A stretch of DNA of 64,000 bases, from assembly GCA_965237415.1 (NCBI GenBank), contig CBDEFM010000002.1, positions 32,001 through 96,000 on the forward strand, written 5' to 3'. Of the stretch, positions 2,996-44,329 are shown piece after piece. A program made the translations under genes and the position numbers. How positions within the stretch are numbered: position 1 is the stretch's first letter; each line of letters begins with the position of its first letter. A model generated the notes under the pieces. It worked only from the letters and a program-made list of their open reading frames with translations, made no database searches and was not told where the DNA came from. Source of the stretch: Alphaproteobacteria bacterium (lineage in GTDB: Bacteria > Pseudomonadota > Alphaproteobacteria > UBA828).

Positions 2996-3997
2996 TCAGT
3001 TGGAATCGGCCTGCAGCCTCGCCATCAGATCGGCCCCGAACTTCTCCTCGAGAAGCGGCCCGACCTGCGCCAGCACCTCTGCGCCCATCGCGGCACGCTC
3101 CTCATCGGTGATCGGGACCACCGTGACGCCGTGATCCGCCAGCTTCTGCGTGTACTCGACATCGACCATCTCGGTCTGGTCGAAGGACCAGGTGGACGCC
3201 TTCTGGAAGGCCGCCGTCACCGCCTCCCGCTGCGCCGCGTCGAGGCCCTCCCACACGCCCTTGTTCATGTAGTACGCCGTGTTCTCCACGAACGCGTTGT
3301 AGGGGATGAAGTGGGTGATGATGTCGCGGAAGATGGTGTAGTAGGACTCCGCCGTACCGCCGACCACACCGTCGACGGTGCCCTGCTGGATCGCCGCCGG
3401 CACGTCGCCCCAGTTCATGGTCGTGGTGTTGAAGCCCATGGCGGTCACAGAATCATGGGCGACCTCGGCGCTCCAGATGCGGATGTTCACGCCCTTCGGC
3501 CCCGTCGTCGTCGCGTTCTCCGGCGCCTTGGCCGTCGCCACGCCGATGAAGCCCTCGACGAAGATACCGAGCAGCTTCACCCCCTGATTGTCCAGGAGCT
3601 CCTCGAAGGTCGTGTAGAAGGCGGAGCCGGGCGAGAAGGCCGCCCGCATCTGGTCGTAGTTGGAGACCATGAAGGGGAGCCCGTTGATCTCCAGCCTGGG
3701 GTCGTTGTGGCTGTAGATGAAGGTGTGGCCCACGTCGATGGCGCCGGCGGCGACATCGCCGAAGACCTGCTCGCCGTAGCCGAGCTGGCCGGCGGGGAAG
3801 GTCTTGACGTTCAGGCCCACGTCGGCGGCTTCGAGATCCGCCTCGATCTGGTTGAGCGCCTCCGTTCCGAAGTGATCGATCGGGTGCTGACCCGCGATCC
3901 TGAGGCGGACCTCGTCGGCGCCGGCCGACGACGCAACGGCGCCGGCGAAGAGGGCTACCGCCGCCATCAGGGCGGCGATCCGACTGTGCAGCTTCAT
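2996..3997 (-). CDS. dctP: TRAP transporter substrate-binding protein
   Basis: Signal peptide, FPAGQLG, NIRI, WGDVPAAIQQGTVDG; GGAGG RBS. Confidence 0.93.
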   Translation of the reverse strand: MKLHSRIAALMAAVALFAGAVASSAGADEVRLRIAGQHPIDHFGTEALNQIEADLEAADVGLNVKTFPAGQLGYGEQVFGDVAAGAIDVGHTFIYSHNDPRLEINGLPFMVSNYDQMRAAFSPGSAFYTTFEELLDNQGVKLLGIFVEGFIGVATAKAPENATTTGPKGVNIRIWSAEVAHDSVTAMGFNTTTMNWGDVPAAIQQGTVDGVVGGTAESYYTIFRDIITHFIPYNAFVENTAYYMNKGVWEGLDAAQREAVTAAFQKASTWSFDQTEMVDVEYTQKLADHGVTVVPITDEERAAMGAEVLAQVGPLLEEKFGADLMARLQADSN

Positions 3998-4339
3998 GGC
4001 TTCCTCCATTGTTTGAGCCTGCCGTAGCGCGGCATGGGATTTTCATACTCGAAGAAAAGTTGAACGATAGCAAAAAATATGCCCTTCAGCCACACGTCAT
4101 ATGCCAGCCGCTCGCTCGCTCGATCGCTTCTCGAAGCCGCCGGCGCCGTTCCACGCCGTACCGCGCGGTTGGGCGGGTCCGAACCTGCAGTACCCCGGTC
4201 GGATGCCTTCAGGCAGCGATCGCGTGTGCCTTGGTGAGGCCGGAGCTGGGGCAGCAGCAACTGCCGTTCCTGCGTAGAGCGGCGCCGGCCTCATAGGGCG
4301 TCCTTCCACGCACGGAATCTTTATTGGGGGAGCACCGCC

Positions 4340-4645
4340 ATGCGCGTCGCGATGATTGGTGCCGGTTACGTCGGTCTGGTGTCGGCCTCGTGCATTTCGG
4401 AGTTCGGCTTCACCGTGACCTGCGTCGATACCGAGCCGGAGAGGATCGCGGCGCTCCGGGAAGGCCGGGTTCCGATCTACGAGCCGGGCCTGGAGCCGCT
4501 GCTCGCCGCCAATGTTGCCGCCGGGCGCCTTTGCTTCACCGGGGACTTCGCGGACGCCGTTCCTCAGGCCGACGTTGTGATGCTGGCCGTCGGCACACCC
4601 AGCCGGCGGGACGACGGCCATGCCGATCTGTCATTCTTGCACTGA
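4340..4645 (+). pseudogene. ugd: UDP-glucose/GDP-mannose dehydrogenase, N-terminal fragment
   Basis: MRVAMIGAGYVGLV..PIYEPGL..AVGTPSRRDDGHADLS, then a stop at 101 aa. Confidence 0.85.
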
Positions 4646-4845
4646 CCCTGCCGCGCTGCGCCTCCGACCGGGCAAGCCCTGCCCAATACGAGCTCAAGCC
4701 CCCTATCACCGTGCAGCGCTCCACCCATCATCCCCACATATTCGTTTCTGGCCCCACCTTCCGCACCATCGCGCGATAGCTGCCACCGAAGCTCCCGCCC
4801 ATGCCAACGGCAAAGGCAAAGGCCGCAGCTTTCCGGCAGGCGCCG

Positions 4846-5238
4846 GCGCGCCACGGTTCCCCGCCGTCAGTGGCACCATGAAGGCGCTACGACTTCCTGT
4901 TCCGCATGCCCTTCGCCTTATGGTTTCGCCAGCCGGCTCCGCAGGTGCCTGCCTCGTTCGTGTCCGCCCTGAGGCGCTCCCGGCGACTTGCAGGCCGGTC
5001 GCCGGAGCGGGGTATCTGTTGGTCACGCTGGCCGTCCCCCTCCAGTGCTTTTCCTCATGGGCAAGAACAGGACCTCACAGATTCCCTGGCGAACCATCCC
5101 GTGGCTCTGCGCCTTTCCAAGACCCCGGATGACCCGTCGCACCTCGCCTGTTGCGGTGCTTCCGGTATTGCCCCCAAGCCCAACACACTGAAGGCGTCGC
5201 CGCTTTCCGTGATTTCGAGGCTTACCGAGCGGCTTCAC
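4846..5238 (-). mobile_element. Group II intron ribozyme remnant (no RT ORF, no D5/D6)
   Basis: Reverse complement aligns by eye with 17862-18250 (GAGCCGGCTGGCGAAA, GGAAGTCGTAGCGC, GGCGGGGAACCGTGGC). Confidence 0.75.
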
Positions 5239-5658
5239 CGCAAGCGGCAGACGCCCCCTGCTAGTCTGGCTGTTCGTGGGCGTGCGAATCTGACGCTGAT
5301 CTGCATGCTAAGATGTTGACATTATTAGGCTCTGAGGGGTCAACGTATTTCTCCGAACAACGAGTACGGACGCAGCGCCCCTACGAGATTCGACCGCTCA
5401 GACCGTGGATGGGTCGTCGACGGCACGGCGTTAGACGGAACGCTCGCCTTGCCTTGATGCAGACCGGTTGACCGACCCGGCATGCAATAGAAATGCATAT
5501 GACTTCTCCATTATGAAAATACATGTACTAATATGGATAGTTTCTCTAATAGTGCGTCCCGGCGCATTACGGCAGGCTGAACAGTGAAGGAAACCGCGAA
5601 GCTGCATAGCCGGATTGACGCTCTTGCGGCGTCGGCGGCGACATTCGGCGGCGCCCTC

Positions 5659-17566: not shown

Positions 17567-18855
17567 GTATCCGTTCCGTCAGGCCGTGGAACGGTGGGTG
17601 GACAGGAGTGGTAGGCGTCCGCTGAGGAAGGTGATTGGCTCGCTGTGCACGCTGGCTCCATTGGGCGGGCGGAGGATTCCACGGCGTGGCCGAACGGTTA
17701 TCGCGCCAGGCGAAGCCCTGGAGAGGAGGATGACATGAGCTGAAACCTCTCGTAGCGATCCAGCGGGTACGACTCCCGCCCGGCAAAGGCGCAGCCCGCC
17801 AGCCGGAAGCGAGTCTTGCATGGCGTGCGGCAACGCCCGTCGTGAAGCGTAGACAGCAGGTGATGAAGCGCCGCGGTAAGCCTCGAAATCGTAAATGATG
17901 ACGCCTTCATTGTTAATCGTGTGTGGGCAGCACCGGAAGCGCCGCTAATGGCGAGGCGCAACGGGACGTCCGGGGTCGTGGACCGGCGCAAAGTCACGGG
18001 ATGGACCGCCAGGGAACCTGGGAGATCCTGCTCTTGCCCGTGGGCAAGATCGCTGGAAAGGGGACGGCCAGTGTGAACAATCCAGACCCCGGCCCGTCGT
18101 CAGGTCTGCATGGCGGCGGGAGCGCCTTGGCGAACACGAACCCCGGCAGACGCCTGCGGAGCCGGCTGGCGAAATCAATAAGCCGAAGGACATGCAGGAG
18201 CAGGAAGTCGTAGCGCTCTGATAGTACCGCTGAAGGCGGGGAACCGTGGCCATCGGGACCCGCTCGAGGGAAGCGGAGCGTCATCTGCACAGACCCACTG
18301 ATGGGAAACGCTGGAGGAAACGCTGAGTTCCACCAACACGTACACGAAACAGCAGTGGATAGCCGAACAGGCGAGGGAGCATCCGGACCGGGTGTTCACG
18401 TCACTGCACCACCTGATCGACATCGATTGGGTGTCGGAGGCGTACCGACGGACGCGCAAGGATGGCGCGACGGGCATCGACGGCGTGACGGCTGCCGACT
18501 ACGCAAAGGACCTTGAGGCCAATCTCGAAAGCCTCCTGAGCCGGATCAAGTCGGGCAGCTATCGCGCGCCACCGGTGCGCCGCCACTACATCCCGAAGGC
18601 GGACGGCACGAAACGCCTCCTCGGCATCCCGACGTTTGAAGACAAGGTGGCGCAGCGGGCGATCCTGATGCTGCTGGAGCCGATTTACGAGACGGACTTT
18701 CTGCCGTGCTCGTACGGCTTCCGGCGCGGACGGTCAAGCCCACGATGCCCTCAGCGCATTGCGCACGGGCATCATCGAGCAGCGCCAGCGGTGGGTGATC
18801 GATGCCGATATCTCGAAGTACTTCGACTCGATCACACACTCCCACCTCCGGTCAT
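17567..18855 (+). mobile_element. ltrA: Truncated group II intron (class E-like RT), 5' ribozyme plus partial RT; 5' boundary approximate
   Basis: [51 protein letters not shown]. Frameshift near 18738; ends before YADD. Confidence 0.85.
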
Positions 18856-27243: not shown

Positions 27244-28842
27244 ATGCTTCGATCGTTGCGAACGGTGGCCATGGCAGGCGCCGTCACCGTGGCCGGCGCC
27301 GCTTTGGCGTTGGGCGCATTCGACACGAAATCCGCCAAGGCCGAGGGCGGCACGCTGGTCTGGTCGATCCCGGCGGCGATGAGCCTCTTCGATCCGCCGC
27401 AGTCCTGCGGCTGGCTCACAAAGAACGCCACCCACATGATCTTCGACGGCCTGGTCGAGCTGGAGCTCGGCAAGCCGGAGGAGGGATGGTCGACGCTCAG
27501 GCCGGCGCTCGCCGAGTCCTGGACCGTCTCCGACGACGGCATGACCTATACCTTCAACCTGCGCAAGGGCGTCAAGTTCCACGACGGCTCGCCCTTCAAC
27601 GCCGAGGTGGCGAAGTGGAACTACGACCGCTTCGCCGATCCGGACGCGCCGCAGTACAGCAAGGTCGGCGCCGCCTTTCTGAGCTTCTACGCCCGCTGGA
27701 TCGAGTCCACCCGCGTGGTCGACGAGAATACCTTCGAGGTGGTCCTCACCCAGCCGCACTATGAGTGGCTGCAGATCGGCCAGTCCTCCTGCGGGCAGCC
27801 GGAGATGATCAGCCCGGTCGCCTGGGAAAAGTACGGCGACCAGGACATCGCGCTCAATCCGGTGGGCACCGGGCCCTTCAAGTTCGTCGAGCGCGAGATC
27901 GACGTGATGGTCGTGCTCGAGCGCAACGACGACTATTACGGCGAGCCGGCGAAGCTCGACCGCATGATCTACCGGCAGATCACCGATCCCGCGACGCGCA
28001 TCGCGGCGCTCAGGGCCGGTGAGATCAACATGGTCACGGAGCCGACCTGGGACGAGATCGAGAACCTGGTGGACGAGGGCTTCCAGCTCCTGCTGCAGCC
28101 CAACGTGCCCTCGGTCTGGTACGCCGCGTTCAACATGAAGCACGAGGCGCTTCAGGATGTCCGCGTGCGCCGGGCGATCAACATGGCGGTCGACCGGGAA
28201 GGCGTTGCGCGCGAGGTGTTGAGGGGCACCGGCAAGGCCGAGCACGGCATGCTCTCCGCCGGCACTTTCGCCTACGATCCCAACTACGCGCCCTATCCCT
28301 TCGACCCCGAGGGCGCGAAGGCGCTGCTCGCCGAGGCCGGCTACGGGGACGGCTTGGAGCTCACCTTCGAGATCTTCGACTACGGCTGGAACGAGGCCTG
28401 GGAGAAGTGGCTCCAGCGCGACCTCAAGAAGGTTGGCATCGACCTCAAGCTGGAAAAGCTGGAGTGGATGACCTACCTCGGCAAGTGGCTCCAGGGCATG
28501 CCCGAGGGCGTGGCGATGAACAGCATGGGCTGGGGCTGGTCGGTTCCCTACTGGACCGCCCATGCCACGCGCTGCGACCATCACCCGCCGAACGGCATCA
28601 ACGGCGGCTGGTACTGCAACGAGAAGGTCGATGCGCTCTATCAGCAGGCGATCCAGACCGAGGATCAGGCTGAGGCCACGAGGCTCTATCGCGAGGCCAA
28701 CCGCATCATCATGGAGGAAGACGTGGCCTTCCTGCCGGTGTTCAGCTACCACAATCCGATCCTGCTGGCGCCCGACGTGAAGGGCTTCGTCAACGGTCAG
28801 GAGAACTGGTACGACTTCACCCTGCCCTATATCGAGGAGTAG
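27244..28842 (+). CDS. Peptide/nickel ABC substrate-binding protein, paralog of 21504-23096
   Basis: PALAESW..FHDG, PVGTGPFKF; long shared stretches with the first SBP. Confidence 0.95.
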   Translation: MLRSLRTVAMAGAVTVAGAALALGAFDTKSAKAEGGTLVWSIPAAMSLFDPPQSCGWLTKNATHMIFDGLVELELGKPEEGWSTLRPALAESWTVSDDGMTYTFNLRKGVKFHDGSPFNAEVAKWNYDRFADPDAPQYSKVGAAFLSFYARWIESTRVVDENTFEVVLTQPHYEWLQIGQSSCGQPEMISPVAWEKYGDQDIALNPVGTGPFKFVEREIDVMVVLERNDDYYGEPAKLDRMIYRQITDPATRIAALRAGEINMVTEPTWDEIENLVDEGFQLLLQPNVPSVWYAAFNMKHEALQDVRVRRAINMAVDREGVAREVLRGTGKAEHGMLSAGTFAYDPNYAPYPFDPEGAKALLAEAGYGDGLELTFEIFDYGWNEAWEKWLQRDLKKVGIDLKLEKLEWMTYLGKWLQGMPEGVAMNSMGWGWSVPYWTAHATRCDHHPPNGINGGWYCNEKVDALYQQAIQTEDQAEATRLYREANRIIMEEDVAFLPVFSYHNPILLAPDVKGFVNGQENWYDFTLPYIEE

Positions 28843-28979
28843 GGAGTACCGGACTCAGCTGGTGAGGCCGCCGGGCAGGGCGCCCGGCGGCCGGCCGCAT
28901 AGGGCATGGGGATGGGCCGCGATGCGCGCGAGCCCGTCCCCGTGACCGTTCCCACGCTACCTGAGGCTGCCACCGACCC

Positions 28980-29948
28980 ATGACGCGATTCATCGTCATG
29001 CGCCTCCTGACGATCATCCCGATCATGTTCGGGGTGTCGTTCTTCGTCTTCATTCTCGCCCATCTCGCGCCCGGCGACGTCACCACGACCCTCACGGGCC
29101 CCTACGCAACCGAGGAGGTGCGCGAGCAGCTCCGCGAATCCCTCGGGCTGAACGAGCCGCTGCCGATCCAGTACGGCAAGTGGCTCAGCCACATTCTCCA
29201 GGGCGACTTCGGCAAGTCGATCGCCAACCGGCGCATGGTCGCCGAGCTGATCTTCCCGAAGTTCGCCAACTCCGCGATTCTGGCGTTGACCAGCGCGGCG
29301 CTCGCCTACGTCATCGGGCTCTTCGCCGGTATCTTCGCGGCCTCCAGGCCCTACGGCCTCTTCGACCGATTTACGATCGCCGGAACACTGATGTTCGGCA
29401 GCATCCCGCCCTACTGGTTCGGGCTGCTTCTCGTTCTGCTCTTCTCGTTGACCTGGCGCTGGCTGCCGGCAACGGGCATGACCAAGATCATCGGCGGCGG
29501 CGGGCCGATCGACGTGATTCTCCATCTGATTCTGCCGACAATCGCCGCGGGCGCGGCGCCGGCGGCAATCATCGCCCGCACCGTGCGCGCGACCATGCTC
29601 GAGATCCTGAGTCAGAACTACATCAAGGTCGCCCGTGCCAAGGGCATCCGGCGCAGCGTGATCCTGCGTAAGCATGCGCTGCGCAACGCGCTGCCTCCCA
29701 TTGCGACGATCTGCGGCCTGCAGCTCGGCTATCTGCTGGGCGGCGTGCTCTTCGTCGAGGTGATCTTCGCCTGGCCCGGCATCGGCTATCAGCTCTGGCA
29801 GGCAATCCAGGCGCGCGACATCCCGACCATCCAGGGCGCCTCGCTGATCGTCGGCGTCACTTTCGTCCTGGTGAACCTCGCGGTCGACGTGTTCAACGCC
29901 TACACCGACCCCAAGATCCGCATTTCCGAGGGAGTGCGCGCGCGATGA
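28980..29948 (+). CDS. Peptide ABC permease (DppB-like)
   Basis: GDFGKS, YIKVARAKG, HALRNAL, FAWPGIG. Confidence 0.95.
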   Translation: MTRFIVMRLLTIIPIMFGVSFFVFILAHLAPGDVTTTLTGPYATEEVREQLRESLGLNEPLPIQYGKWLSHILQGDFGKSIANRRMVAELIFPKFANSAILALTSAALAYVIGLFAGIFAASRPYGLFDRFTIAGTLMFGSIPPYWFGLLLVLLFSLTWRWLPATGMTKIIGGGGPIDVILHLILPTIAAGAAPAAIIARTVRATMLEILSQNYIKVARAKGIRRSVILRKHALRNALPPIATICGLQLGYLLGGVLFVEVIFAWPGIGYQLWQAIQARDIPTIQGASLIVGVTFVLVNLAVDVFNAYTDPKIRISEGVRAR

Positions 29949-30871
29949 CCGACGCGCCGGGTCTTCACAGCGAATCGATGCGCCGGCGCTCCGCGGCCGA
30001 GCTGCGGCGCGAGAACCTCCACATCATGGTCCGCACCCTCACGCTCGCCTGGCATGCCTATGCCAAGGACAAGGCGGCGGTTGGGGCGCTGATCTTCATG
30101 GTGATCGTGGTTCTGCTCTCCATCCTCGCGCCCTGGATCAGCCCCTACGACCCCACCGACGCGGTCGGCACCCGCGGCGGCCTGCCCGGGACCGACGGCC
30201 TCATCCTCGGCGGCGACATGGACGGCCGCGACATGCTCTCACGCCTCCTCTGGGGCGGCCGGGTGGCGCTGCTCATCGGCGTGGTGCCGACCGTCGCCGC
30301 CACCTTCGTGGCCGTGGTGCTGGGCCTGCTCGCGGGCTACATCGGCGGCTGGCTGGACCAGGTGGTGATGCGCGTCCTCGATGTCTTCTTCGCCTTTCCG
30401 CTGGTTCTGCTCGCCATCGTCATCGCCGGCATTCTCGACCCCGGCGTCGGCACGCTGATCCTCTCCATCGCCGTGGCGCTGGTGCCCTACATCGCGAGGC
30501 TGGTGCGAACGACCACGGTCTCGGTCAAGCAGGAGCCCTATATTGAGGCCGCGCGCGCCGGCGGCGCCACGACTCCGGCCATCCTCGCCCGCTACGTCCT
30601 GCCCAACATGCTGGCACCGGTCATCGTCTATTCGACGACGCTGATCGGCCTGATGATGGTGGTGGGCTCCGGCCTCTCCTTCCTCGGCCTCGGCATCCAG
30701 CCGCCGGACGCCGACTGGGGCACGATGGTCTCCGACGGCCGCGCGGTGCTGAAGAAGGCGCCGCATGCGACTGCCTTCCCCGGCTTCATCATCGTCATCG
30801 TCTCACTCGCTTTCTCCTTCATCGGCGACGGCCTGCGCGATGCGCTCGACCCGCGCGCCAGGGTGCGTTGA
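29945..30871 (+). CDS. Peptide ABC permease (DppC-like)
   Basis: DGRDMLSRLLWG, YIEAARA, LSFLGLG, GDGLRDALDP. Confidence 0.95.
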   Translation: MTDAPGLHSESMRRRSAAELRRENLHIMVRTLTLAWHAYAKDKAAVGALIFMVIVVLLSILAPWISPYDPTDAVGTRGGLPGTDGLILGGDMDGRDMLSRLLWGGRVALLIGVVPTVAATFVAVVLGLLAGYIGGWLDQVVMRVLDVFFAFPLVLLAIVIAGILDPGVGTLILSIAVALVPYIARLVRTTTVSVKQEPYIEAARAGGATTPAILARYVLPNMLAPVIVYSTTLIGLMMVVGSGLSFLGLGIQPPDADWGTMVSDGRAVLKKAPHATAFPGFIIVIVSLAFSFIGDGLRDALDPRARVR

Positions 30872-30881
30872 GGAGGGTGTC

Positions 30882-31885
<1,004 letters not shown>

Positions 31886-31889
<4 letters not shown>

Positions 31890-32869
31890 GCAGTGTCACG
31901 AAGGGCCCGCTGCTCTCCGTCGAGGGTCTGGTCAAGTACTTCAAGCTCGACCCCAAGGGCCTCTTCGAGGCGCCGCCGATCCTGCGCGCGGTCGACGGCG
32001 TCGATTTCGACGTGAAGCGGGGGGAAACCCTCGGGCTGGTGGGCGAATCGGGCTGCGGCAAGTCGACGACGGCGCGGCTGGTCCTGCGGCTGATCGAGCC
32101 GACCGCAGGCTCGGTCACCCTCGACGGCGTTGACGTGCTGGCGTGCACCAAGAAGGAGCTGCTCGCGCTCAGGCGCGAGATGCAGATCGTCTTTCAGGAT
32201 CCGCTCAGCTCGCTCAACCCGCGCATGTCGGTCGGCAACCAGATCGCCGAGCCGCTGCGCTTCCACGGCATCGGCGACAAGGTGGACCGCTTCGACCGGG
32301 CGCGGGAGTTCCTCGAGGTCGTGGGCCTCAGCACCGATTATTACGACCGGCTGCCCCACGAGTTCTCCGGCGGGCAGAACCAGCGCGTCGCCATCGCCCG
32401 CGCCCTGATCCTGCAGCCCAAGCTGCTCATCCTCGACGAGCCGGTCTCGGCCCTCGATGTCTCGATCCGCGCCCAGATCCTCAGGCTCCTGATCGACCTG
32501 CAGGGACGCTTCGAGCTCACCTACGTCTTCATCTCCCACGACCTCTCGGTGGTGAAGCGCTTCTGCAACCGCACCGCCGTGCTCTATCTCGGCCGCATCG
32601 TGGAGATCGCGGAGAGCGAGAGCCTCTACCACGAGCCGCTCCACCCCTATTCCCAGGCGCTCATCAGCGCCATCCCCGAGGCCAATCCCGACGGGCCCAG
32701 GGCCGAGTCTCTCGGCGGGCTGGAAGGCGATGTGCCGAGCCCGATCAGCCCGCCCTCGGGCTGTGCCTTCCACACGCGCTGCCCCCATCGGATGCCCGTC
32801 TGCTCGGAGCAGAAGCCCGAGCTCAAGGAGGTGCGCGACGGCCACAAGGTCGCCTGCTTCCTCCACTAG
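31886..32869 (+). CDS. Peptide ABC ATP-binding protein (DppF-like)
   Basis: GESGCGKST, FSGGQNQR, PPSGCAFHTRCP. Confidence 0.95.
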
Positions 32870-33612: not shown

Positions 33613-35513
33613 CAACTACCGCCACGTCATCCATTCCTTGAAGAGGAAGCCGATGGCGCTGCTGAACCTGGTCTACCGCGACGCCCTGTTCCCCCGCGAC
33701 GCTTATCGGCGCTGCTTCGAGGCGGCCCTGGAGCGGTTCACCGAGCGCGAGGCCTGCCGGCTCACGGTGACCCTCCTGGCGCTTGCCCATGAGGAGAACT
33801 GCGAGGCCGAGCTGGCGGCGGCGATCGACGGCATCCTGGACGAGGGGCGGCTACCCGCCCCCAACGACCTCAAGGCGCGCTTCGCGCCGGACCCGGGCAA
33901 GATGCCCAGGATCGACGTCACCAGGACGCATCTGGCCGGCTACGGGTCTCTGCTGAGCGCAGGAAGTGCGTCATGACCGGCAGCGACGACCTCACGGCAA
34001 CCGACCCCAACAAGGTCGATGCCATCAAGCTCTCCCTGATGCTCGCCACCAGCAGCCGATCGAAGCCCGGCCGCGACGTTCCGCCTCCAGAGCGGCCGAG
34101 ATCCTCGTCGATAATCACGGGCTCGTCCCAGCCCAGACCGCGAGCCCGATCCGCAAGGCCGTACTGACGACGGCGGCTCTCGTGGTTGTGCCGCAGCTGG
34201 TCCGGCGTCGACTGCCGAATGTAGACGACCGCCTCGCGTGCCAGATGATCAGGCGCGATCTTGTTCATCGCCCGCCTCCTTCTCCGTGGCCGTCCCGTCC
34301 GCCATGTCCTCCGTCGGGTTCGCTGCCGCTTCGAGCAGCAGCGCCGCCAGTATCGGGATTACCGCCCCTCGCATCGCCGGCGTGAGTGCCGGACCCGGCT
34401 CCAGTAGTTCCAACAGCTCTCCCTGTCTTCCCATGTCGCCCTCCCAAATCCATGCGGGAGGGCGATGGTAGAACAGCGTCGATGTCCGAACGGAGGTCGC
34501 GCAGGGCGTCCACCGTAGCGCGATCCGCGGCTGATCCGTCACCGTCATCGCCGCCGCGTCTGGAAAGCACATCCAGGTCGGTATCTGCGCCAGCGTGCCA
34601 TCCGGCTGGCGGACGACGTAGATCATGGTCCCCTTGAAGCGGTGGCGCCGAACCACTTCCACGCGCTGGCCCGTGCGGGGGTGGAAGGGGTAGTGGATCT
34701 TCGTCGGACCGCCCTGGTATCGGGCAGTGTGTGGCTGTTCCGCCCGGCGCCGGCAAAAGCCATCTTGCCTCTGCCATCGGCCTCGCCCTGGTCGAGAACG
34801 GCTATCGCGTACTCTTCACCCGCACCACCGATCTGGTGCAGCGCCTGCAGGTGGCAAGGCGTGAGCTCGCCCTGGAAAGCCAGCTCGCAAGGCTCGACCG
34901 CTACCATCTTCTGATCCTCGACGACCTCGCCTACGTGCAAAAGGATCAGGCCGAGACCAGCGTCCTCTTCGAGCTCATCTCGGCGCGCTACGAAAGGCGC
35001 TCTCTTCTAATAACCGCGAACCAGCCCTTCGGAGAATGGAACAAGGTGTTCCCGGACGAGACCACTGCGGTGGCCGCCGTCGATCGCCTCGTCCACCACG
35101 CCACAATCCTCGAGATGAACGTCGAGAGCTATCGCCGCCGCGCCGCGCTCGACAGACGAAAAAGGGGACCGGGGCGGCCCGCCAAGATCGCCACCGAGAA
35201 AAACACCACCGAGGACTGAGCCACGCACGGGTGCCGCCCCGGCGGCGCTCACGCTCGCTCCCTGCGGCCCGTCGGCATCTCAGTCGGCGGGCCGCACTTT
35301 ACTCCACGCATCCCGGCCGCAATCCCCCACAGCGATATCGCACCGATCGATCATGCGGACGCTCCGCGACAATCTGTGTGTGTCGCGCCGCGACAATCAA
35401 CGAGACGAAGGCCCTTGCAATGCCCGACGCTGCCCGCAATCATGCGCCCGCCGCTGGCGCCGGGAATCTCACCCTGATTGACGCGCGGCTCTCATCCAGA
35501 TCGTCGCGCTATA
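33613..35513 (+). mobile_element. Disrupted IS21 element: istA 3' part (to 33976), split istB (33973-34043 and 34734-35219), right end
   Basis: YRHVIHSLKRKPMALLNLVYRDALFP; PGAGKSHLASAIG..LILDDL..AVDRLVHH; CGCGACAATC repeats near the end. Confidence 0.85.
34044..34733 (-). mobile_element. Truncated large serine recombinase (34044-34268) with upstream accessory ORF, inside istB
   Basis: MNKIAPDHLAREAVVYIRQST..IDEDLGRSG..RPGFDRLL; upstream KIHYPFHP..QPDGTLAQIPTWM. Confidence 0.8.
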
Positions 35514-36115
35514 AGTGGGCTCGGGTGGGGTGAAGAGGCCGTTCGCGCACTGGCGTGCTGTAGCGGCACCCGATGCTAAGCCTGGTCCGAACCATTTTGT
35601 CGCCTCGGTCACTGATGGCGCGGGTTTCCCGCGACCTCGTTGTGTGCCCAGCATGCTCGGTAGCTGGGAAGTGAAAGTCTTCTATCCAACCTGATGGAGG
35701 TGAAGGATTAGCAAAGCGCAAGGGCATCCCCGCGAGGTGGTGTCTGAAGGAAGCGTGGAGCAAAACCGCGACCTGACGAACAGAAACCGGATATGAGGCA
35801 GGCTTGGTCGGACGAGCGGGCAACGGATCGCGAAGTCCATATCCATCAAGGCCAAGTTTGTAGATCCGGCAGGTGTGCGGGGAAGGCGACCGAGCTTACC
35901 TGGGGAGGCCTGTGCCGTGTTCCAAGTCTGGAACTGAGGGAACTGCAAGGGGACCTGATCGCGGCGCAGGAGTCAGCAGACGGCATAGTAGGTCAGGCAG
36001 TCGGCAAAGCTATTTAGGCACTCCAAGGCCGAGAGGTGGAGCAACAGATAAGCCGAGCCGGTAACGATGGCCGAAGGCCTGAACGATTGGAAGCGGCAAG
36101 TAGGACGGACAACTC

Positions 36116-36923
36116 ATGCGTGGAAAGCGGCAGAACATCCAGTACTCACTGGCCTTGGAACTATCTGAGCGGGGTGAAACCCTGGTCGGCGGCTACCAAG
36201 GGACCGAACCACCTGTGGCGAAGCCCGACCCCGAAAGCCCGGCCTTGGCGGAACAGCTAATGGAGGAGATGTGCGGGCGGGAAAATTGCGAAACTGCGTG
36301 GAAGCACGTTCGAAAGAACAAGGGCGGTCCCGGCGTCGATGGGATGACCATCGACGAGGCCGCGGACTACCTGCGTGAGCACTGGCCAAGCATTCGGTCT
36401 CAACTGCTCGACGGAACCCACCAGCCCCAGCCGGTCAAGAGGGTCGAGATACCCAAGCCGGACGGCGGGGTCAGGAAACTCGGCGTCCCCTGTGTCGTCG
36501 ACAGACTGGTCCAGCAAGCCGTGTTGCAGGTTCTTCAGGCGCAATGGGACCCGACGTTTTCCGAACACAGCTACGGGTTCCGCCCGGGGCGCTCGGCCCA
36601 TCAGGCGGTGGCTCAGGCACAAGCGTATATTGCTGAGGGCTACGGTATCGTGGTTGACATCGACCTCGAAAAATTCTTCGACCGTGTCAACCAGGACCGA
36701 CTGATGGCTCGCGTTGCCGAACGGGTCTCCGACAAACGGGTACTCAAGCTGATCCGCGCCTTTCTCAAGGCCGGAGTGATGGAAGACGGGCTGGTTTATC
36801 CGGTTGACGAGGGGACCCCGCAAGGCGGTCCGCTTTCGCCTCTCCTGAGCAATCTCGTGCTCGATGAACTCGACAGGGAACTGACACGACGCGGCCACCG
36901 GTTCTGCCGGTACGCGGATGACT
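36116..36923 (+). CDS. ltrA: Class C intron RT/maturase, exon 1 (to YADD)
   Basis: GVDG, PVKRVEIPKPDGG.RKLGVP, HSYGFRPGRS, GTPQGGPLSPLLSN, RYADD. Confidence 0.93.
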
Positions 36924-37276
36924 GTGTGCCACGAAGGCACGAGGAGGCTGAGATGATTTAGCCACCGAAGGGCCGTGCTGCACGAGAGATGGGGGTCGGC
37001 CCCCCGGAGCCGCCGTGCAGGCGGAGGCTTCAAACCACCCACTGCTGCTGTGTTCAAGAGACATGGTAGTGAGCGAGTGGGAAAAGGCAGGGCAATACCC
37101 TGTCAGGTAGGGATCGCGGAGTCGAACGCAAGTGAACCACTGTCAACGTGTCGAAAGCGTGTGGACGACGTCAAAACCGAGGGGTAGTCGTTACCTCGGG
37201 ATGAGTTCGGAAGGAACCTGCTTACTGACCGAATGGCGTCCGGCACAAAGGTGGCGAGACCGCGATCCAGGCTCTT

Positions 37277-38871
37277 CGGAACCTGTCAACGACTTTGAGA
37301 CAGTGACGATTGCGATTTACTGAGCAGTTTCTCCTGTTGTGGGTGTCACAGGTAGGTTGATCCAGACGGCTTGGGGAAGGGGATCCGGTTGTGGGATCCC
37401 TCGAACGAAGCGTTCGGGATGACGGGTCCAGGCGGCTTGAAGGGTCCGCCCGCGCTGCTCCAGCACGCTCTGGGTTCGATTGTGATGCACGTCGTCCGGG
37501 GTGAGCATCGCGATCCCGCCATGGCGATGTTCGGTGTTGTACCAAGGGAAGAACGTTCGGCAGAAGGCGATCGCGGCGGTGATGTCGTGGAAGCGGCCAG
37601 GGAAGCCGGGGTGGTACTTCAGGGTCTTGAACTGCGCCTCGGAGAAGGGGTTGTCGTCGGACACCTGAGGGCGGCTCAGTGAACGGGTCACGCCGAGGTC
37701 GGCGAGCAGTTGTGCGGTGCACTTGCTCGTCATCGGCGCGCCGCGGTCGGAGTGCAGGGTGAGCACCTGGGGCTGGACGCCCTGTTTGTGGCAGGTCTCT
37801 TCGATGAGACGACCGGCCAGCGCCGAGTTCTCCCGGTCTGCGACCATCCAGCCGACCGCGTAGCGGCTGAAGATGTCGAGCACGACGTAGAGGTAGAAGT
37901 ACGTCCACTTGGTCGGCCCCAACAGCTTGGTGATGTCCCAGGACCAGGTCTGGTTCGGCGCCGTGGCCACCAGCTCGGGCTTGATGTACTGGGGATGCTC
38001 GCGCTGATTGCGCCGCTCTCGGACCGGCTGATCGGCGGCCAGGATCCGATACATCGTCCGCTCCGAGCACAGGTAATGGCCTTCGTCGAGCAGCGTCGCC
38101 ACGACCTCCGCCGGCGCACGGTCGACGAAGCGCGGGCCGGCGAGCACATCGAGGATCTGCTCGCGCTCGGCTTCACACAGCGCCCGGGCGGGCGTTGGAC
38201 GGGGCTGCCGGTGCCCGGGAGTTGACCTCTGACGACGGTAGAAGGTCGCCCGTGACACGCCCAGTGCTTGGCAGGCCGGCGCCACGCCGACCTGCGCCGC
38301 AAGCGGTTGGACCGCGATCAAGAGCGCGTTCCGTGTTCGAGGTTCAATCCCAGCAGCCCGGCAACTTTTCCCTGCACGTCCAGGATCGTGTGCGCGGTGT
38401 GCAACTCGTGCTCCAGGCGAGCCACTTGCGCCTCGAGCGCGCGCACCTTCGCATCCAGCGGGTTGCGTTCGGCCGGTTTCGCGCCGCGCTTCTTCGCGGC
38501 CAACTCCCGCAGCGAGCCCTTGCGCCGCGCCTTGCGCCAAGCCGTCAGATGCGAGCTGTACAACCCCTCGCGGCGAAGCAGGCGGCCCACCTCGCCGGGC
38601 TGTGTGCAGCGATCCGCCTCCTCCAGAATCCGCAGCCGATACTCTGCGGTGAACTGGCGCCGCTTCGGCTTGGCCACAACCTCCGGGTCCGGGGTCGGTC
38701 TGGCGCGGCCGGCCCTGGGGGCCTCGTCGCTACGCTCCTCGACCCCCAGGGCCGGAACGGAAACCTCATTCAATGTCATCGAGTCTCTCTCTGCGGTCAT
38801 CGGTTTTCACCTCCGCCGCCCTACAGAAATTCCAAAGGTTGCTGGTGTCTCAGTGATGTTGGCAGAGAGGG
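37277..38871 (-). mobile_element. IS3-like element (orfA 38318-38800, orfB 37317-ca.38320) inside the inner intron ribozyme
   Basis: KRRQFTAEYRLRIL; WSWDIT, LHSDRG, DNPFSEAQFKTLK; subterminal inverted repeats; CTT duplicated at 37274 and 38872. Confidence 0.9.
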
Positions 38872-39072
38872 CTTGTGCGGAACGTGGGAACCTGTCGCTT
38901 CGATGCCAAGGAAGAACCGCAAGTGGAGGCCCCACGAGCGGGAGAGTACCGATGCGGAGCACAGGGGCGGAGCGACCCGTAGTAGCGATGAAAGTTCTGT
39001 AATGGGGCTGGAGCGAAGGGGTTGCCCTATGCGGTTCGGGAAGTCGGGGCAACCGGCGACGGGAGGACCTTG

Positions 39073-40317
39073 ATGGACCGGACGAAGCCGTTTCCCATCA
39101 GCAAACGTCAGGTCTGGGAAGCCTGGAAGAAGGTGAAAGCCAATCAGGGTGGGGCGGGGATTGACGGCCAGGCAATAGAAGCGTTCGAGGCCAAGGTTGG
39201 AGACAACCTGTACATGCTTTGGAACCGCATGGCGTCGGGCAGTTATCATCCGTCTCCGGTTCGACGAGTTGAGATTCCCAAGGCGGACGGCGGCGTTCGT
39301 CCGCTGGGGATACCAACGGTGGAGGATCGGGTAGCCCAAACGGTGGTGAAAGAGGTACTGGAGCCGGAACTGGAAAAACACTTTCATTCGGACTCCTACG
39401 GCTATCGGCCGGGGAAATCGGCTCACCAGGCACTGGGGCAGGCGCGAGAGCGCTGCTGGCGAAGTGACTGGGTGCTGGATCTCGATATCAGGTCGTTTTT
39501 CGACACGTTGGATCACGACCTGCTGCTTCGCGCAGTGCGCCGCCACACCGACGAGAACTGGGTGGTGCTGTATATCGAGAGGTGGCTGAAGGCCCCGGTA
39601 ATGCTGCCGAGCGGGGAGGTAGAAGAGCGGGATCGAGGCACGCCCCAAGGGGGTGTCGCAAGTCCGTTGCTTGCCAACCTGTTCCTGCATTATGTGTTCG
39701 ATTTGTGGATGGAGAGGCACTACCCGGCCATCCCGTTCGAGCGTTATGCCGACGATATCGTCTGCCATTGTCGCAGTGAGCGGCAGGCACACCATCTGAA
39801 GGGCGCACTGACACGTCGCTTTGAAGCCTGCGGGCTCGCGCTGCACCGGGAGAAGACGAAGATTGTCTACTGCCAGGACAGCGATCGACGAGGGAAGCAC
39901 CCCGTAACATCCTTTGACTTCCTGGGCTACACGTTTCGGCCCCGGCGGTCGAAGAACAAGTGGGGCGGGTTTTTCGTCAGTTTTAGTCCGGCGATCAGCA
40001 ACAAGGCGGCGAGAGCGATTCGGCGGGAAATCAGGAGTTGGAATCTGCATCGACGCAGTGACAAGAGCCTTGACGACCTTGCCCGAATGTTCAACGCAAC
40101 CATCAGGGGGTGGATCAACTATTACGGGGCCTTTTACAAGTCGACCCTCTTTGCCCCCTTGCGGATGATCGACAGGAGGCTCGCGCTTTGGGCCACGCGC
40201 AAGATGAAGCGTTTTCGGGCGCATCGGAGACGCGCTGCGCAATGGGTTGCCGACTGTGTTCGCCGGGACCCTAACCTGTTCGCACATTGGCGCGTTATTT
40301 ATCGTACGGCTGCATAG
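39073..40317 (+). CDS. ltrA: Group II intron RT/maturase (RmInt1-like, no endonuclease domain), intact
   Basis: KPFPISKRQVWEAWKKVKAN, RPLGIPTVEDR, GTPQGGVASPLLANLFLH, ERYADD, FDFLG, GWINYY. Confidence 0.95.
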   Translation: MDRTKPFPISKRQVWEAWKKVKANQGGAGIDGQAIEAFEAKVGDNLYMLWNRMASGSYHPSPVRRVEIPKADGGVRPLGIPTVEDRVAQTVVKEVLEPELEKHFHSDSYGYRPGKSAHQALGQARERCWRSDWVLDLDIRSFFDTLDHDLLLRAVRRHTDENWVVLYIERWLKAPVMLPSGEVEERDRGTPQGGVASPLLANLFLHYVFDLWMERHYPAIPFERYADDIVCHCRSERQAHHLKGALTRRFEACGLALHREKTKIVYCQDSDRRGKHPVTSFDFLGYTFRPRRSKNKWGGFFVSFSPAISNKAARAIRREIRSWNLHRRSDKSLDDLARMFNATIRGWINYYGAFYKSTLFAPLRMIDRRLALWATRKMKRFRAHRRRAAQWVADCVRRDPNLFAHWRVIYRTAA

Positions 40318-40394
40318 GAGGAGCCGTGTGAGCCGAGAGGTTCAAGCACGGTTCTGTGAGCGCCTCGGGGTGAGATTCCCCGGGGCGACTCGAC

Positions 40395-40969
40395 GTAACA
40401 TCTACGTCCGCAGCCAGCGCGCCGGCGAACGTGTCATGGCCTCCGTGGCCAGGTTCCTGACCACGACGCTACGGCTCAAGGTCAACGAGTCAAAGAGCGC
40501 GGTCGCGCGACCGGAGGAGCGCAAGTTCCTGGGGTTCAGCATCGCGAATGATGGGAGCGAACGGCGCATCGCGCCGCAAGCTCTCGCGAAGTTCAAGGCG
40601 CGAATTCGGGACCTCACAAGCCGGACGCGGGGAATAAGTCTGCACCGGATGATCGAAACGCTAAAGCCATACCTGATGGGCTGGCGCGGCTACTTCGGTT
40701 TCTGCCAGACCCCGCGCGTGCTCACGAACCTGGAAGCGTGGATACGCCGAAGACTGCGTGCGTATCTGTGGCGACAGTGGAACAACGGTCACAAACGCTT
40801 CAAGGAGCTCCGCCGCCGGGGACTCTCAAAGGACCAAGCCGCCATCGCCGCTGGCTCGCCGACGGCGTACTGGCGCATGGCCGGACATGTGGTGGTCCAG
40901 CAGGCCCTACGCAACCACCATTTCGACTCGCTCGGCCTCCCCAGACTCTACACCCCTGCTGCGGCCTAA
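40395..40969 (+). CDS. ltrA: Class C intron RT/maturase, exon 2
   Basis: NIYVRSQRAGERVM..LKVNESKS..KFLGF..GWRGYF..WIRRRLR; 808+575 nt = 461 codons in frame with exon 1. Confidence 0.92.
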
Positions 40970-41120
40970 TTCGGTCGAACCGCCGTGGTACGGACCCGTA
41001 TGCCCGGTGGTGTGGGAGGGGCGGCATCGTGAGATGCCCCCCTATCCCGATCAAGAGAATGGGACTTCGAACATGGTTCCTCCCCGCTCGCGACGGAGAT
41101 GAAACCTGGGAGGATGTTCC

Positions 41121-42539
41121 ATGGCGCGCAAGTCTCGAAGAACCCAGCGCCTCAGGGTGGTGAACCCGGACTGCGCAGGGATCGACATCGGCAAGGACCG
41201 GCATTTCGTGGCGGTCGACCCGGAACGCACCGAGGAGCCGGTGCGTTCGTTCGGCGCCTTTACCCGCGATCTGGAGGAGATGGCGGCGTGGCTAGCGTCG
41301 TGTGGGGTGACCAAGGTGGCGATGGAATCGACCTCGGTCTACTGGATAGCGGTCTACGAGACGCTGGAGCGCGCGGGCTTCGAGGTGATGCTGGTGCCGC
41401 CGCGCATGACGAAGCAGATCGGCGGGCGCAAGAGCGACGTGTTGGACTGCCAGTGGATCTGGCAGCTGATGTCCTACGGCCTGCTGCGGGGAGCGTTCCG
41501 TCCGGGCGACGAGGTTTGCCCGCTGCGCTCCTACGCACGCCAGATGAGGCGGCTGACCGGGGACCGCTCCCGCTGCGTCCTGCACATGCAGAAGGCGCTG
41601 ACCGAGATGAACGTCAAGCTCGACTCGGTGATCGCCAACATCGTGGGACTGACCGGCCAGCGCATCCTGCGCGCGATCATCGACGGCGAGCGTGACCCAG
41701 AGCGCCTGGCGACGCTCCGCCACCGGGGCATCAAGGCCGACGCCGATACGATCGCCGCGAGCCTTCAGGGGACGTGGCGTGAGGAGCATCTGTTCGCCCT
41801 CGAACAGGCCATGCAGCGCTACGACTTCCTGACCCAGCAGATCGACGACTGCGAGGCCCGGGTGATGGCCGAGATCGAGCGCCTGACACCGCCGGACGAT
41901 CTCCCGGACGGCGGCGCACCGGACCATGCCCCCGGCACGACCTCCGAAACCGCGTCGAGCCGCTCTGCGAACGCCGCAAGCAACTACACCGGCAAGGAGG
42001 GCATCCAGGCCCTGGCGTTGCGCGGAATGATGGGCGTCGACCTCACCGCGATCCCCACCATCGGTCCCGGTACCGCACTGGTGATCGCCTCGGAGATCGG
42101 CCCGGACTTCTCCGCCTTCCCCTCCGCCCAGCACTTCTGCTCCTGGCTTGCGCTCGCGCCGGGAACCAGGATCAGCGGCGGCAAGAACCTCCCCGGCAAG
42201 TCCCCGAAGGCGGTCAACCCCGTCGGGCAGGCCCTGCGCATGGCGGCCATGGCCGCGCGCCGCAGCGAGACCTTCATCGGCGCCAAGCACCGCGCAAGGC
42301 TCGCCCGAATGGACACCCCCGTTGCGATCAAGGCGACCGCCCGCGAACTCGCCTGCCTGATCTACCTCATGGTGACCGAAGGCCAGAAATACGTCGAGCA
42401 GGGCATCGACGCCTACGAGAAGCGGCGCCTCAACAGAAAGTTCGCTCATCTCGACCGCCAAGCCCGAAAACTCGGGCTCCAACTCGTCCCGGCACCGCAA
42501 AACGACGAAACGCAAAACTCAATGCCGTCAACTGCTTAG
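41121..42539 (+). CDS. IS110-family DEDD recombinase/transposase, intact
   Basis: CAGIDIGK, MESTSVYW, KSDVLD, IPTIG..IASEIG, SWLALAP..ISGGK; GGAGG RBS. Confidence 0.95.
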   Translation: MARKSRRTQRLRVVNPDCAGIDIGKDRHFVAVDPERTEEPVRSFGAFTRDLEEMAAWLASCGVTKVAMESTSVYWIAVYETLERAGFEVMLVPPRMTKQIGGRKSDVLDCQWIWQLMSYGLLRGAFRPGDEVCPLRSYARQMRRLTGDRSRCVLHMQKALTEMNVKLDSVIANIVGLTGQRILRAIIDGERDPERLATLRHRGIKADADTIAASLQGTWREEHLFALEQAMQRYDFLTQQIDDCEARVMAEIERLTPPDDLPDGGAPDHAPGTTSETASSRSANAASNYTGKEGIQALALRGMMGVDLTAIPTIGPGTALVIASEIGPDFSAFPSAQHFCSWLALAPGTRISGGKNLPGKSPKAVNPVGQALRMAAMAARRSETFIGAKHRARLARMDTPVAIKATARELACLIYLMVTEGQKYVEQGIDAYEKRRLNRKFAHLDRQARKLGLQLVPAPQNDETQNSMPSTA

Positions 42540-43462: not shown

Positions 43463-44329
43463 CTACGCCGCCGACGGCGGCTCGCGGTCCAGGGCGTCGG
43501 CCTTTCCGGCTCGCCGACGGCCTGCTGCGCCCCGGCGGCGGCGGCGCTCTGCGCTGCGCTTCTTCTGGCGTTCCTCGGCCTCCTTTCGGCGATAGGAATC
43601 GCCGTCGATGGCGATGATCTCGGCGTTGTGGATGAGGCGGTCGACGAGGGCGACGACGCAGGCGGCGTTGGGGAAGGCTTCGCTCCACTCGGCGAAGGGC
43701 CGGTTTGTGGTGATTATGGTGGAGCGCTGCTGGCTGCGGCTGGAGACGATATTGAACAGCAGATCGGCATGGCGATTGCTATAGGAGAGGTAGCCGACCT
43801 CGTCGATCACCAGCAGCTGTTGGCGGGCGTAGAATCGGAGCTTGCGCTGGAGCAGGCTGTCGCTATCGAGGGCGGCGAGCTCACCGAGCATGTTTCCTGC
43901 AGTTGTGAAGCGCACGGTGTGCCCCTCGATGATGGCGCGGTGGGCGAGGTTGGCGGCGATGGTGGACTTGCCCACCCCGTTTGGGCCGACGAGGACGACG
44001 TTGGCGGCCTCGCGCAGGAACTCGAGGCTCATGAGGTCCTCGATGACCATTGGGTCGCAGCGGCGGGGCCAGTCCCAATCGAAGTCGACGAGGGGCTTGA
44101 AGTGTCCAATGCGGGCCTCGCTGAGGCGCCGCTTGAGGCTGCGGCTTCGCCGTTCTTCCTCTTCCCAGGCGATGAGGGTGGGCAGCCAGCTGCACTCGCC
44201 GATGTCGTCCCAGTGGGCGATGAGGCCGTACAGGCGCAGCGCGCGGGCACGGTCCTTGAGGGTATCGTAGGCGGTCCTGCGCGGCCGCAGCGCCTTGACG
44301 CGGGCGTCGGTCAGGATGACCTTGGGCAT
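43463..44329 (-). CDS. istB: IstB-like ATPase fused in frame to a 22-aa integrase N-terminal stub
   Basis: MPKVILTDARVKALRPRRTAYD followed by LKDRARALRL..GPNGVGKS..LVIDEVG..LVDRLIH. Confidence 0.8.
   Translation of the reverse strand: MPKVILTDARVKALRPRRTAYDTLKDRARALRLYGLIAHWDDIGECSWLPTLIAWEEEERRSRSLKRRLSEARIGHFKPLVDFDWDWPRRCDPMVIEDLMSLEFLREAANVVLVGPNGVGKSTIAANLAHRAIIEGHTVRFTTAGNMLGELAALDSDSLLQRKLRFYARQQLLVIDEVGYLSYSNRHADLLFNIVSSRSQQRSTIITTNRPFAEWSEAFPNAACVVALVDRLIHNAEIIAIDGDSYRRKEAEERQKKRSAERRRRRGAAGRRRAGKADALDREPPSAA

Follow-up and report, generated by a model that had tools for sequence, protein, structure and literature searches.

We examined a 64,000-nt stretch of DNA from an alphaproteobacterium of the UBA828 lineage (assembly GCA_965237415.1, contig CBDEFM010000002.1, positions 32,001 to 96,000 of the forward strand), which we call the window and whose own numbering is used throughout. 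Its plus strand carries a nest of three mobile elements, in which an outer group II intron holds an inner group II intron and this in turn holds an insertion sequence (IS). The inner intron splits the reverse transcriptase (RT) gene of the outer intron one base past the codons for the catalytic YADD motif, a position at which most of the readable junctions of its relatives also lie.

Anatomy of the nested elements

The inner intron, a IIB-type element of a YADD-homing lineage whose RT lacks an endonuclease domain, occupies 36924..40394 on the plus strand, as delimited by a GUGUG start, matches to RF01999 and RF00029, and restoration of the host open reading frame (ORF). Its 5′ junction reads CGG TAC GCG GAT GAC T/GTGTGCC and its 3′ junction GACTCGAC/GT AAC ATC TAC GTC; the two ends share a 2-nt GT ambiguity, and GUGYG sets the start at 36924. 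Domain I is matched by RF01999 (group-II-D1D4-2) at 36991-37108 with 122 bits over the full model (1-118) at the Rfam gathering threshold, and domains V and VI, with an AGC triad and a 3′ end in CGAC, lie at 40319..40394 on the plus strand (RF00029, 55.8 bits). The RT/maturase ORF (39073..40317, plus strand) is intact and encodes 414 aa that match RVT_1 (1.2e-40) and GIIM (1.2e-16) in Pfam and TIGR04416 with 447 bits against a cut-off of 300; the Pfam scan returned RVT_1 and GIIM only, with no endonuclease domain. A 5′ GUGYG, an AY-type 3′ end, domain I, and an ORF with RT and maturase domains in domain IV together mark the element as a bacterial RT-encoding group II intron. Its RT shares 42% identity with the outer RT over 213 aa and 53% with ltrA copies in an S. 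meliloti plasmid, candidate RmInt1 copies flanked by IS6 and IS66 genes.

The outer intron, with its nested contents, spans 35642..41051 on the plus strand. It begins with GUGUG at 35642, and its domain I is matched by RF02001 (D1D4-3) at 35726-35895 with 140 bits at the Rfam gathering threshold; its domains V and VI (40978-41051, plus strand) match RF00029 with 30.5 bits (E 2e-4), below the gathering score. The triad position of domain V is CGC, in an ACCGCCG that aligns with the consensus GAGCCG. CGC in place of AGC at the domain V catalytic triad is a criterion for IIC, or class C, introns. Another is a position immediately 3′ of a terminator-like hairpin. The start of the outer intron is preceded, at a distance of 8 nt, by a 6-bp hairpin (CGCGGG-TTT-CCCGCG); a terminator scan of the upstream region found no terminator. 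The CGC triad, the endonuclease-less RT, and the small upstream hairpin are consistent with a IIC-like intron, and a class C label for the outer RT likewise fits these sequence features.

The outer RT gene is found in two parts, both on the plus strand. The 5′ part (36116..36923; RVT_1 and TIGR04416) ends with RYADD and the first base of the next codon; its RVT_1 match in Pfam breaks off at profile position 155 of 205, and its TIGR04416 score is 311.6 bits. The 3′ part (40395..40969) resumes with CNIYV, carries the maturase domain (GIIM, 74.7 bits), and ends in a stop codon at 40967-40969. When we excised 36924-40394 by script, a single open frame of 460 aa ran from the ATG at 36116 to this stop, reading FCRYADDCNIYV. 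Excision and translation thus confirmed the proposal of an initial annotation, made from the sequence, that removing the inner intron restores YADD-CNIYV and a 460-aa RT, and its description of the element as a twintron was borne out by the boundaries, by Rfam domains at both ends, and by the restored ORF.

The innermost element is an IS3-family IS of 1595 bp on the minus strand (37277..38871; HTH_Tnp_1, rve, and rve_3), which accounts for 1595 of the inner intron's 3471 nt. We set its boundaries against the closest uninterrupted relative of the inner intron. Its family is indicated by an orfA with a helix-turn-helix domain (38800-38318, minus strand; HTH_Tnp_1), an overlapping orfB with a DDE rve domain (38540-37317, minus strand), a 3-bp target duplication (CTT, at 37274-37276 and 38872-38874), and multiple copies, ∼83% identical, elsewhere in the same genome. 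In a consensus fold of 26 lineage members, the insertion point lies in the 3′ strand of a basal helix of domain I, and splicing of the window's inner intron has therefore probably been lost. The initial annotation had placed the boundaries of the inner intron correctly and had overlooked this interruption at 37277-38871.

Recognition of the YADD codons

The target read by the inner intron extends over 36910..36923 on the plus strand and consists of intron-binding site 2 (IBS2; GTACGC, 36910-36915), a linker G at 36916, and IBS1 (GATGACT, 36917-36923). Exon-binding site 1 (EBS1; AGUCGUU, 37186..37192, plus strand) forms the terminal loop of a covarying hairpin, the stem of which is canonical in 146 of 156 cells, and pairs with GAUGACU at 7/7 positions, two of them wobbles. 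EBS2 (GCGUGU, 37157..37162, plus strand) pairs with GUACGC at 6/6 positions, also with two wobbles, and leaves one linker base (36916) unpaired. It sits in an internal loop between two domain I helices (226-230/318-322 and 244-249/312-317), which show compensatory changes and are canonical in 286/286 cells. A local hairpin with EBS2 in its terminal loop was canonical in 181/208 cells and was rejected in favor of the long-range helices.

The decisive evidence for EBS1 comes from retargeted members of the lineage, in which the loop and the exon vary together. In two relatives inserted at HADE codons of IS66 transposase genes (L028 and L030), EBS1 is UUUCGUU and the exon GAUGAGA or GACGAAA; in L029, CACCACC faces GGUGGUG; and in L055, at the CWDN codons of an IS3 transposase gene, CGUUGUU faces GACAAUG. 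In the IIB layout, subdomain Id carries EBS2 in an internal loop, a terminal loop holds EBS1, and EBS3 lies apart from EBS1. We found this arrangement for EBS1 and EBS2, which were assigned to the same loops in the initial annotation and which the domain I fold puts at canonical IIB positions; an EBS3 is suggested, and the inner intron is of structural type IIB. The putative EBS3 is an A at intron position 325 (37248..37248, plus strand), the best-scoring column, which is complementary to the first 3′-exon base in 21 of 30 relatives. The one-base linker between IBS2 and IBS1 resembles that of RmInt1, which is described as recognizing its target through EBS1 and EBS2 with a one-base linker (PMC4615759), and is only a hint that the inner intron may belong to class D rather than class E.

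Insertion sites and hosts across the lineage

We gathered relatives of the inner intron in three ways, all blind to the flanking sequence: by RT protein, by an intron-internal 15-mer, and from plasmid records. A site was called strict if the 5′ junction fell directly after T[AT]Y-GCN-GAY-GAY-N. The RT protein search, limited to one genome per species, yielded 80 loci, and 24 of the 34 readable 5′ junctions that it gave on genome contigs of the GUGYGCCAYGAA clade were strict. In metagenome and viral contigs, the 15-mer, GTGYGCCACGAAGGC, gave 237 matches. Genuine domain I homologues made up 14 of them (one from viral contigs), the remaining 223 arose by chance or belonged to other sequence, and the 15-mer was rejected as a lineage probe. 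The strict YADD/FADD site was found at nine of these 14 homologues, and the remainder lay at WADD, YCDD, a truncated ATGCTGATGATT, CWDN, and TDD. YADD was also the site of four out of five fetched plasmid elements whose 5′ end could be read (S. meliloti, B. thuringiensis, Shigella sonnei, and Bradyrhizobium elkanii); the Salmonella plasmid element, with a different 5′ end, occupied a site other than YADD. Counted together with the window, 38 of 53 lineage junctions were strict, and the 27 nt upstream of these 38 sites formed 36 clusters at 80% identity. The proposal that the intron specializes in YADD codons of diverse RTs was thereby upheld once the flanks of its homologues had been tabulated.

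The strict sites also show how the guide loops cope with synonymous codons. In both loops, G residues stand opposite the last base of the Tyr codon and of each Asp codon; the last base of the Ala codon serves as the unpaired linker. Each wobble position shows C as well as T among the 38 sites (C 27 and T 11 at −2; T 26 and C 12 at −5; T 25 and C 13 at −11), as anticipated from the ability of an EBS G to tolerate both TAY and GAY codons, and all four bases occur at the Ala third position (−8).

The hosts are overwhelmingly group II RT genes. GIIM was present in 25 of 35 downstream exon ORFs, two of which also carried HNH, and RVT_1 in 19 of 28 upstream exon ORFs; TIGR04416 was the best NCBIfam match for all eight further host pieces. 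The residues that follow YADD vary across the host RTs (CNIYV, IITG, VVCFQ, VVGFQH, VVLVSG, VCHCRS, and others). PADLOC, tried on the host RT halves, matched them with every RT model and was of no use for distinguishing group II hosts from hosts of the retron or defense-associated RT (DRT) type. The sampled host pieces yielded no retron, DRT, or CRISPR-type RT, with PADLOC undiscriminating and NCBIfam run on eight pieces. In an RT tree of 70 rows, built from single, full-length, stop-free matches (L004, L005, L007, L017, L019, L025, and L043, among others, were left out), a sister clade of 28 rows with support 95/90 had no xADD junction among the readable ones. A Photorhabdus relative (L016) with 67% RT identity lies directly after CGCTACGCGGACGACT, and the RT that it splits is of the CNIYV type, as is the outer RT of the window.

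Several loci stood out individually. One lineage member lies in a GH94 glycosyl hydrolase gene at CGT TAT GGC GAT GAT T (YGDD), an off-target look-alike in a non-RT gene (L015 3455). Sublineages (L028 3461, L030 1608, L055 3462, and L085) have been retargeted to transposase motifs, IS66 LHADE and IS3 GNCWDN, with matching changes in EBS1; the lineage seems to have turned more than once to conserved codons in the catalytic regions of other mobile elements. Another member lies in the apparent domain V of a different group II intron, directly after CATGCCGGGTGGTG, with CACCACC as EBS1 (L029 127). The S. meliloti plasmid CP140952.1 carries two identical copies head to tail (L321 1963 and 3824), the first after YADD codons and the second directly after the 3′ end of the first, with a further split RT ∼5 kb downstream.

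Insertion into RYADD codons has been described before. Tourasse and Kolsto (2008; PMC2504315) report it for B.th.I3, M.a.I5, UA.I3, and P.l.I2, and place B.th.I3 of Bacillus thuringiensis israelensis in AGGTATGCTGATGACT, that is, in RYADD plus T. A B. thuringiensis HD1002 plasmid element directly after AGGTATGCTGATGACT matches our lineage domain I profile along its entire length (positions 1-355, 224.7 bits), and the identical target string and the serovar suggest that it is B.th.I3. Like the window's inner intron, B.th.I3 has the same register, the same IBS1/IBS2 layout as CGGTACGCGGATGACT, an RT without an endonuclease, and a match to the domain I profile; unlike it, B.th.I3 lacks an IS interruption, and its host RT is reported as retron-like, whereas the RT invaded in the window belongs to a group II intron and has a maturase domain. 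M.a.I5, UA.I3, and P.l.I2 resemble the inner intron, by published description, in lying in RYADD codons of an RT gene. On the evidence of its insertion after RYADD plus one base, its homology to the HD1002 element, and its endonuclease-less RT, we assign the inner intron to this already described YADD-homing lineage. The same habit is known from published twintrons, in which one intron homed into the RT catalytic motif of another; the host in the window is sponge-associated. Homing into the RT catalytic motif has been in print since 2003-2008, and the window brings no new principle; the novelty of YADD targeting that the initial annotation implied does not hold, given PMC2504315. Our literature searches, which covered papers and not their supplements, found YADD targeting stated in no paper other than this one.

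Other systems share single traits with the inner intron. RmInt1, RmInt2, and Sr.md.I1 (Sinorhizobium; IIB introns of class D) likewise have an endonuclease-less RT of ∼415 aa, mobile-element targets, and a one-base linker, and Sr.md.I1 lies in IS66 transposase genes, as do the retargeted L028 and L030. The RmInt1 group, however, targets one IS, whereas the window's lineage targets a coding motif of a whole enzyme superfamily. In the Thermosynechococcus elongatus twintrons, as described by Mohr et al. (2010; PMC2882425), the inner introns lack an ORF and interrupt the host ORF between its first and second ATG; the window differs in that insertion is at the catalytic YADD and the inner intron carries an RT gene of its own.

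The twintron in its genome and in sponge communities

The stretch was found in sponge metagenomes and metatranscriptomes of about ten studies (runs X1-X20), and its host is therefore a widespread sponge-associated bacterium. We mapped contigs of four public sponge-community runs, namely three RNA libraries and one run (X2) listed as "DNA?", to 35500-41200. A joint lacking the outer intron (35640→41051, with a 1-nt ambiguity) and a joint lacking the IS (37273→38872) were present in contigs of all four runs, and the joint lacking the inner intron (36923→40395) in contigs of two RNA runs and of X2. Within repeat ambiguities, these joints equal the predicted boundaries to the base. Each of the three layers is thus present or absent in natural populations.

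In the explanation that we favor, and hold with high confidence, the inner element is a mobile, endonuclease-less IIB-type intron of the RYADD-homing lineage that enters host RT genes by EBS base pairing. EBS2 (GCGUGU; usually GCGUAG in relatives) would read (C/G)-TAC-GC, one base, the Ala third position, would be skipped, and EBS1 (AGUCGUU) would read GAY-GAY-T; the intron would then reverse-splice one base into the codon next to YADD. Because an EBS G lies opposite the third base of the Tyr and Asp codons and accepts C or U, one RNA could enter many different RT genes. The inner intron would have entered the RT gene of a IIC-like intron and made it a twintron, and an IS3-family element would later have landed in a basal helix of its domain I, leaving a three-level nest, very probably an inner intron incapable of splicing, and a dead outer RT gene. 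The anatomy, boundaries, EBS positions, lineage-wide target preference, and presence/absence polymorphism of the three layers are shown by the data; the effect of the IS on splicing is inferred, and for retrohoming by reverse splicing at replication forks, we infer the mechanism from RmInt1-type endonuclease-less introns.

Some observations weigh against this explanation. Fifteen of the 53 junctions lie outside strict YADD sites, most of them near-cognate or retargeted, and the G at the window's IBS3 (40395) is unpaired with the putative EBS3 (A). In its own genome, the inner intron is single-copy, as is the outer intron. Six RT genes of that genome (RYADDFV; C1:673271, C1:17532, C2:2312896, C2:2319428, C2:2258724, and C2:2948066) offer 7/7 plus 6/6 predicted pairing and T at +1 and are nevertheless unoccupied; with six perfect predicted targets empty, the inner intron is not, or is no longer, spreading there. 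The single copy and the empty targets fit a recent arrival or an inactive copy. Finally, the 36923→40395 joint comes from RNA libraries of two studies and also from X2, so that the RNA contigs are no proof of splicing.

The single copy would also suit an ordinary intron that landed once, ectopically, in an RT gene, its YADD position being a coincidence, and RT genes account for a minority of the 77 T[AT]YGCNGAYGAY sites in the genome. We nevertheless give a one-off insertion almost no chance, since the same codons recur at the 38 strict lineage junctions, in 36 host contexts and many phyla, since the motif is matched by conserved, complementary EBS loops, and since targeting of YADD is on record (PMC2504315). 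Very improbable, too, is that one old YADD insertion was inherited, or moved with its host intron as a composite twintron, without repeated homing. Such composite mobility is discussed for T. elongatus (PMC2882425), and some hosts are met repeatedly, such as the CNI[YF]V-type RTs of L007, L013, L016, L021, L039, L043, and L047. A shared history of that kind is, however, at odds with the high diversity of host residues after YADD, with upstream contexts that fall into 36 clusters less than 80% alike, with HNH domains in two hosts, and with the occurrence of the same outer intron with and without the inner one in sponge runs.

A further proposal, which would add to homing rather than replace it, is that splitting the catalytic motif ties the host RT to splicing of the inner intron and so acts as a brake or switch that benefits the cell or the inner intron. 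The same idea has been argued for RmInt1, whose poor splicing is said to block its IS targets (PMC5894124), and word depths in X2, which are not copy numbers, were 76-97 for contigs of the uninvaded outer RT vs. 6-9 for contigs of the inner intron. The dependence of the host RT on inner splicing, as put forward in the initial annotation, does follow logically from the architecture; yet the inner intron of the window is itself broken by the IS, and its six perfect targets are empty. The 36923→40395 joint of the RNA contigs, being present in X2 as well, does not speak for splicing, and the sampled hosts included no retron, DRT, or CRISPR-type RT. We consider a brake or switch unlikely.

The initial annotation had also suggested that the intron avoids its own YADD codons. 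Its own site, CGT TAT GCC GAC GAT A/TC, is indeed mismatched with its EBS loops (6/7 plus 5/6), and there is a trend at the level of the family: the base after GAY-GAY is T in none of 31 RT genes of the lineage, in which mostly Ala or Gly codons follow YADD, and the first 3′-exon base is T in 7 of 31 of these genes vs. 20 of 28 in the sister clade that does not target YADD, in both cases counted over rows that are related to one another. This trend is a lead only. On the other side, the introns of L031, L035, and L036, in which EBS1 likewise begins with A, sit at targets that have A at −1, and related RT genes have been invaded by lineage members (L004, L017, and L334); in the invading copy of L004, a U replaces the A at the first EBS1 position, opposite G at −1. 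Self-immunity of the lineage is therefore not absolute, and the case for it in the window's copy is weak. L004 (2212-5959) is itself the window's closest relative: it lies at YAGD codons of a degenerate host and contains a second copy (3449-5322), a three-level nest within one lineage in which a sister copy has invaded the element's own YADD.

A bolder version would combine codon-level self-immunity with a wobble-tuned EBS that reads a protein motif while sparing the intron itself, and would see in the element a hyperparasite of IIC introns that is currently active in sponge symbionts, because all three nesting layers are polymorphic. We regard this version as doubtful. If it were true, codon choice would remove the −1 and +1 (EBS3) pairings while the catalytic motif stays.

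The surroundings of the twintron are rich in mobile DNA. An IS110-family transposase gene (41121-42539) begins 70 nt past the end of the outer intron, an IS21 IstB gene (43463-44329, minus strand) follows a short way downstream, and mobile elements are piled up beside an oligopeptide ABC transporter operon (27244-32869). A trace of a third group II intron is matched by RF02005 (D1D4-6) at 17770-17985 with 122.5 bits, and 3′ of it a short RT fragment (∼18431-18832) aligns with residues 14-138 of the inner RT at 42% identity by tblastn.

From a sponge-associated bacterium, the window contributes a clean and well-bounded new case of a YADD-homing intron, and public data show polymorphism for each of its three nested elements. 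The accompanying tally, 38 of 53 junctions in 36 host contexts and many phyla, together with retargeting to IS66 and IS3 and the matching EBS1 changes, is broader than that in the literature we consulted. The layout of the EBS loops, with G opposite third positions and the Ala third position skipped, explains how such introns enter RT genes of many classes. For annotation, awareness of this lineage could be useful, since RT genes split in this way are easily miscalled as two ORFs.

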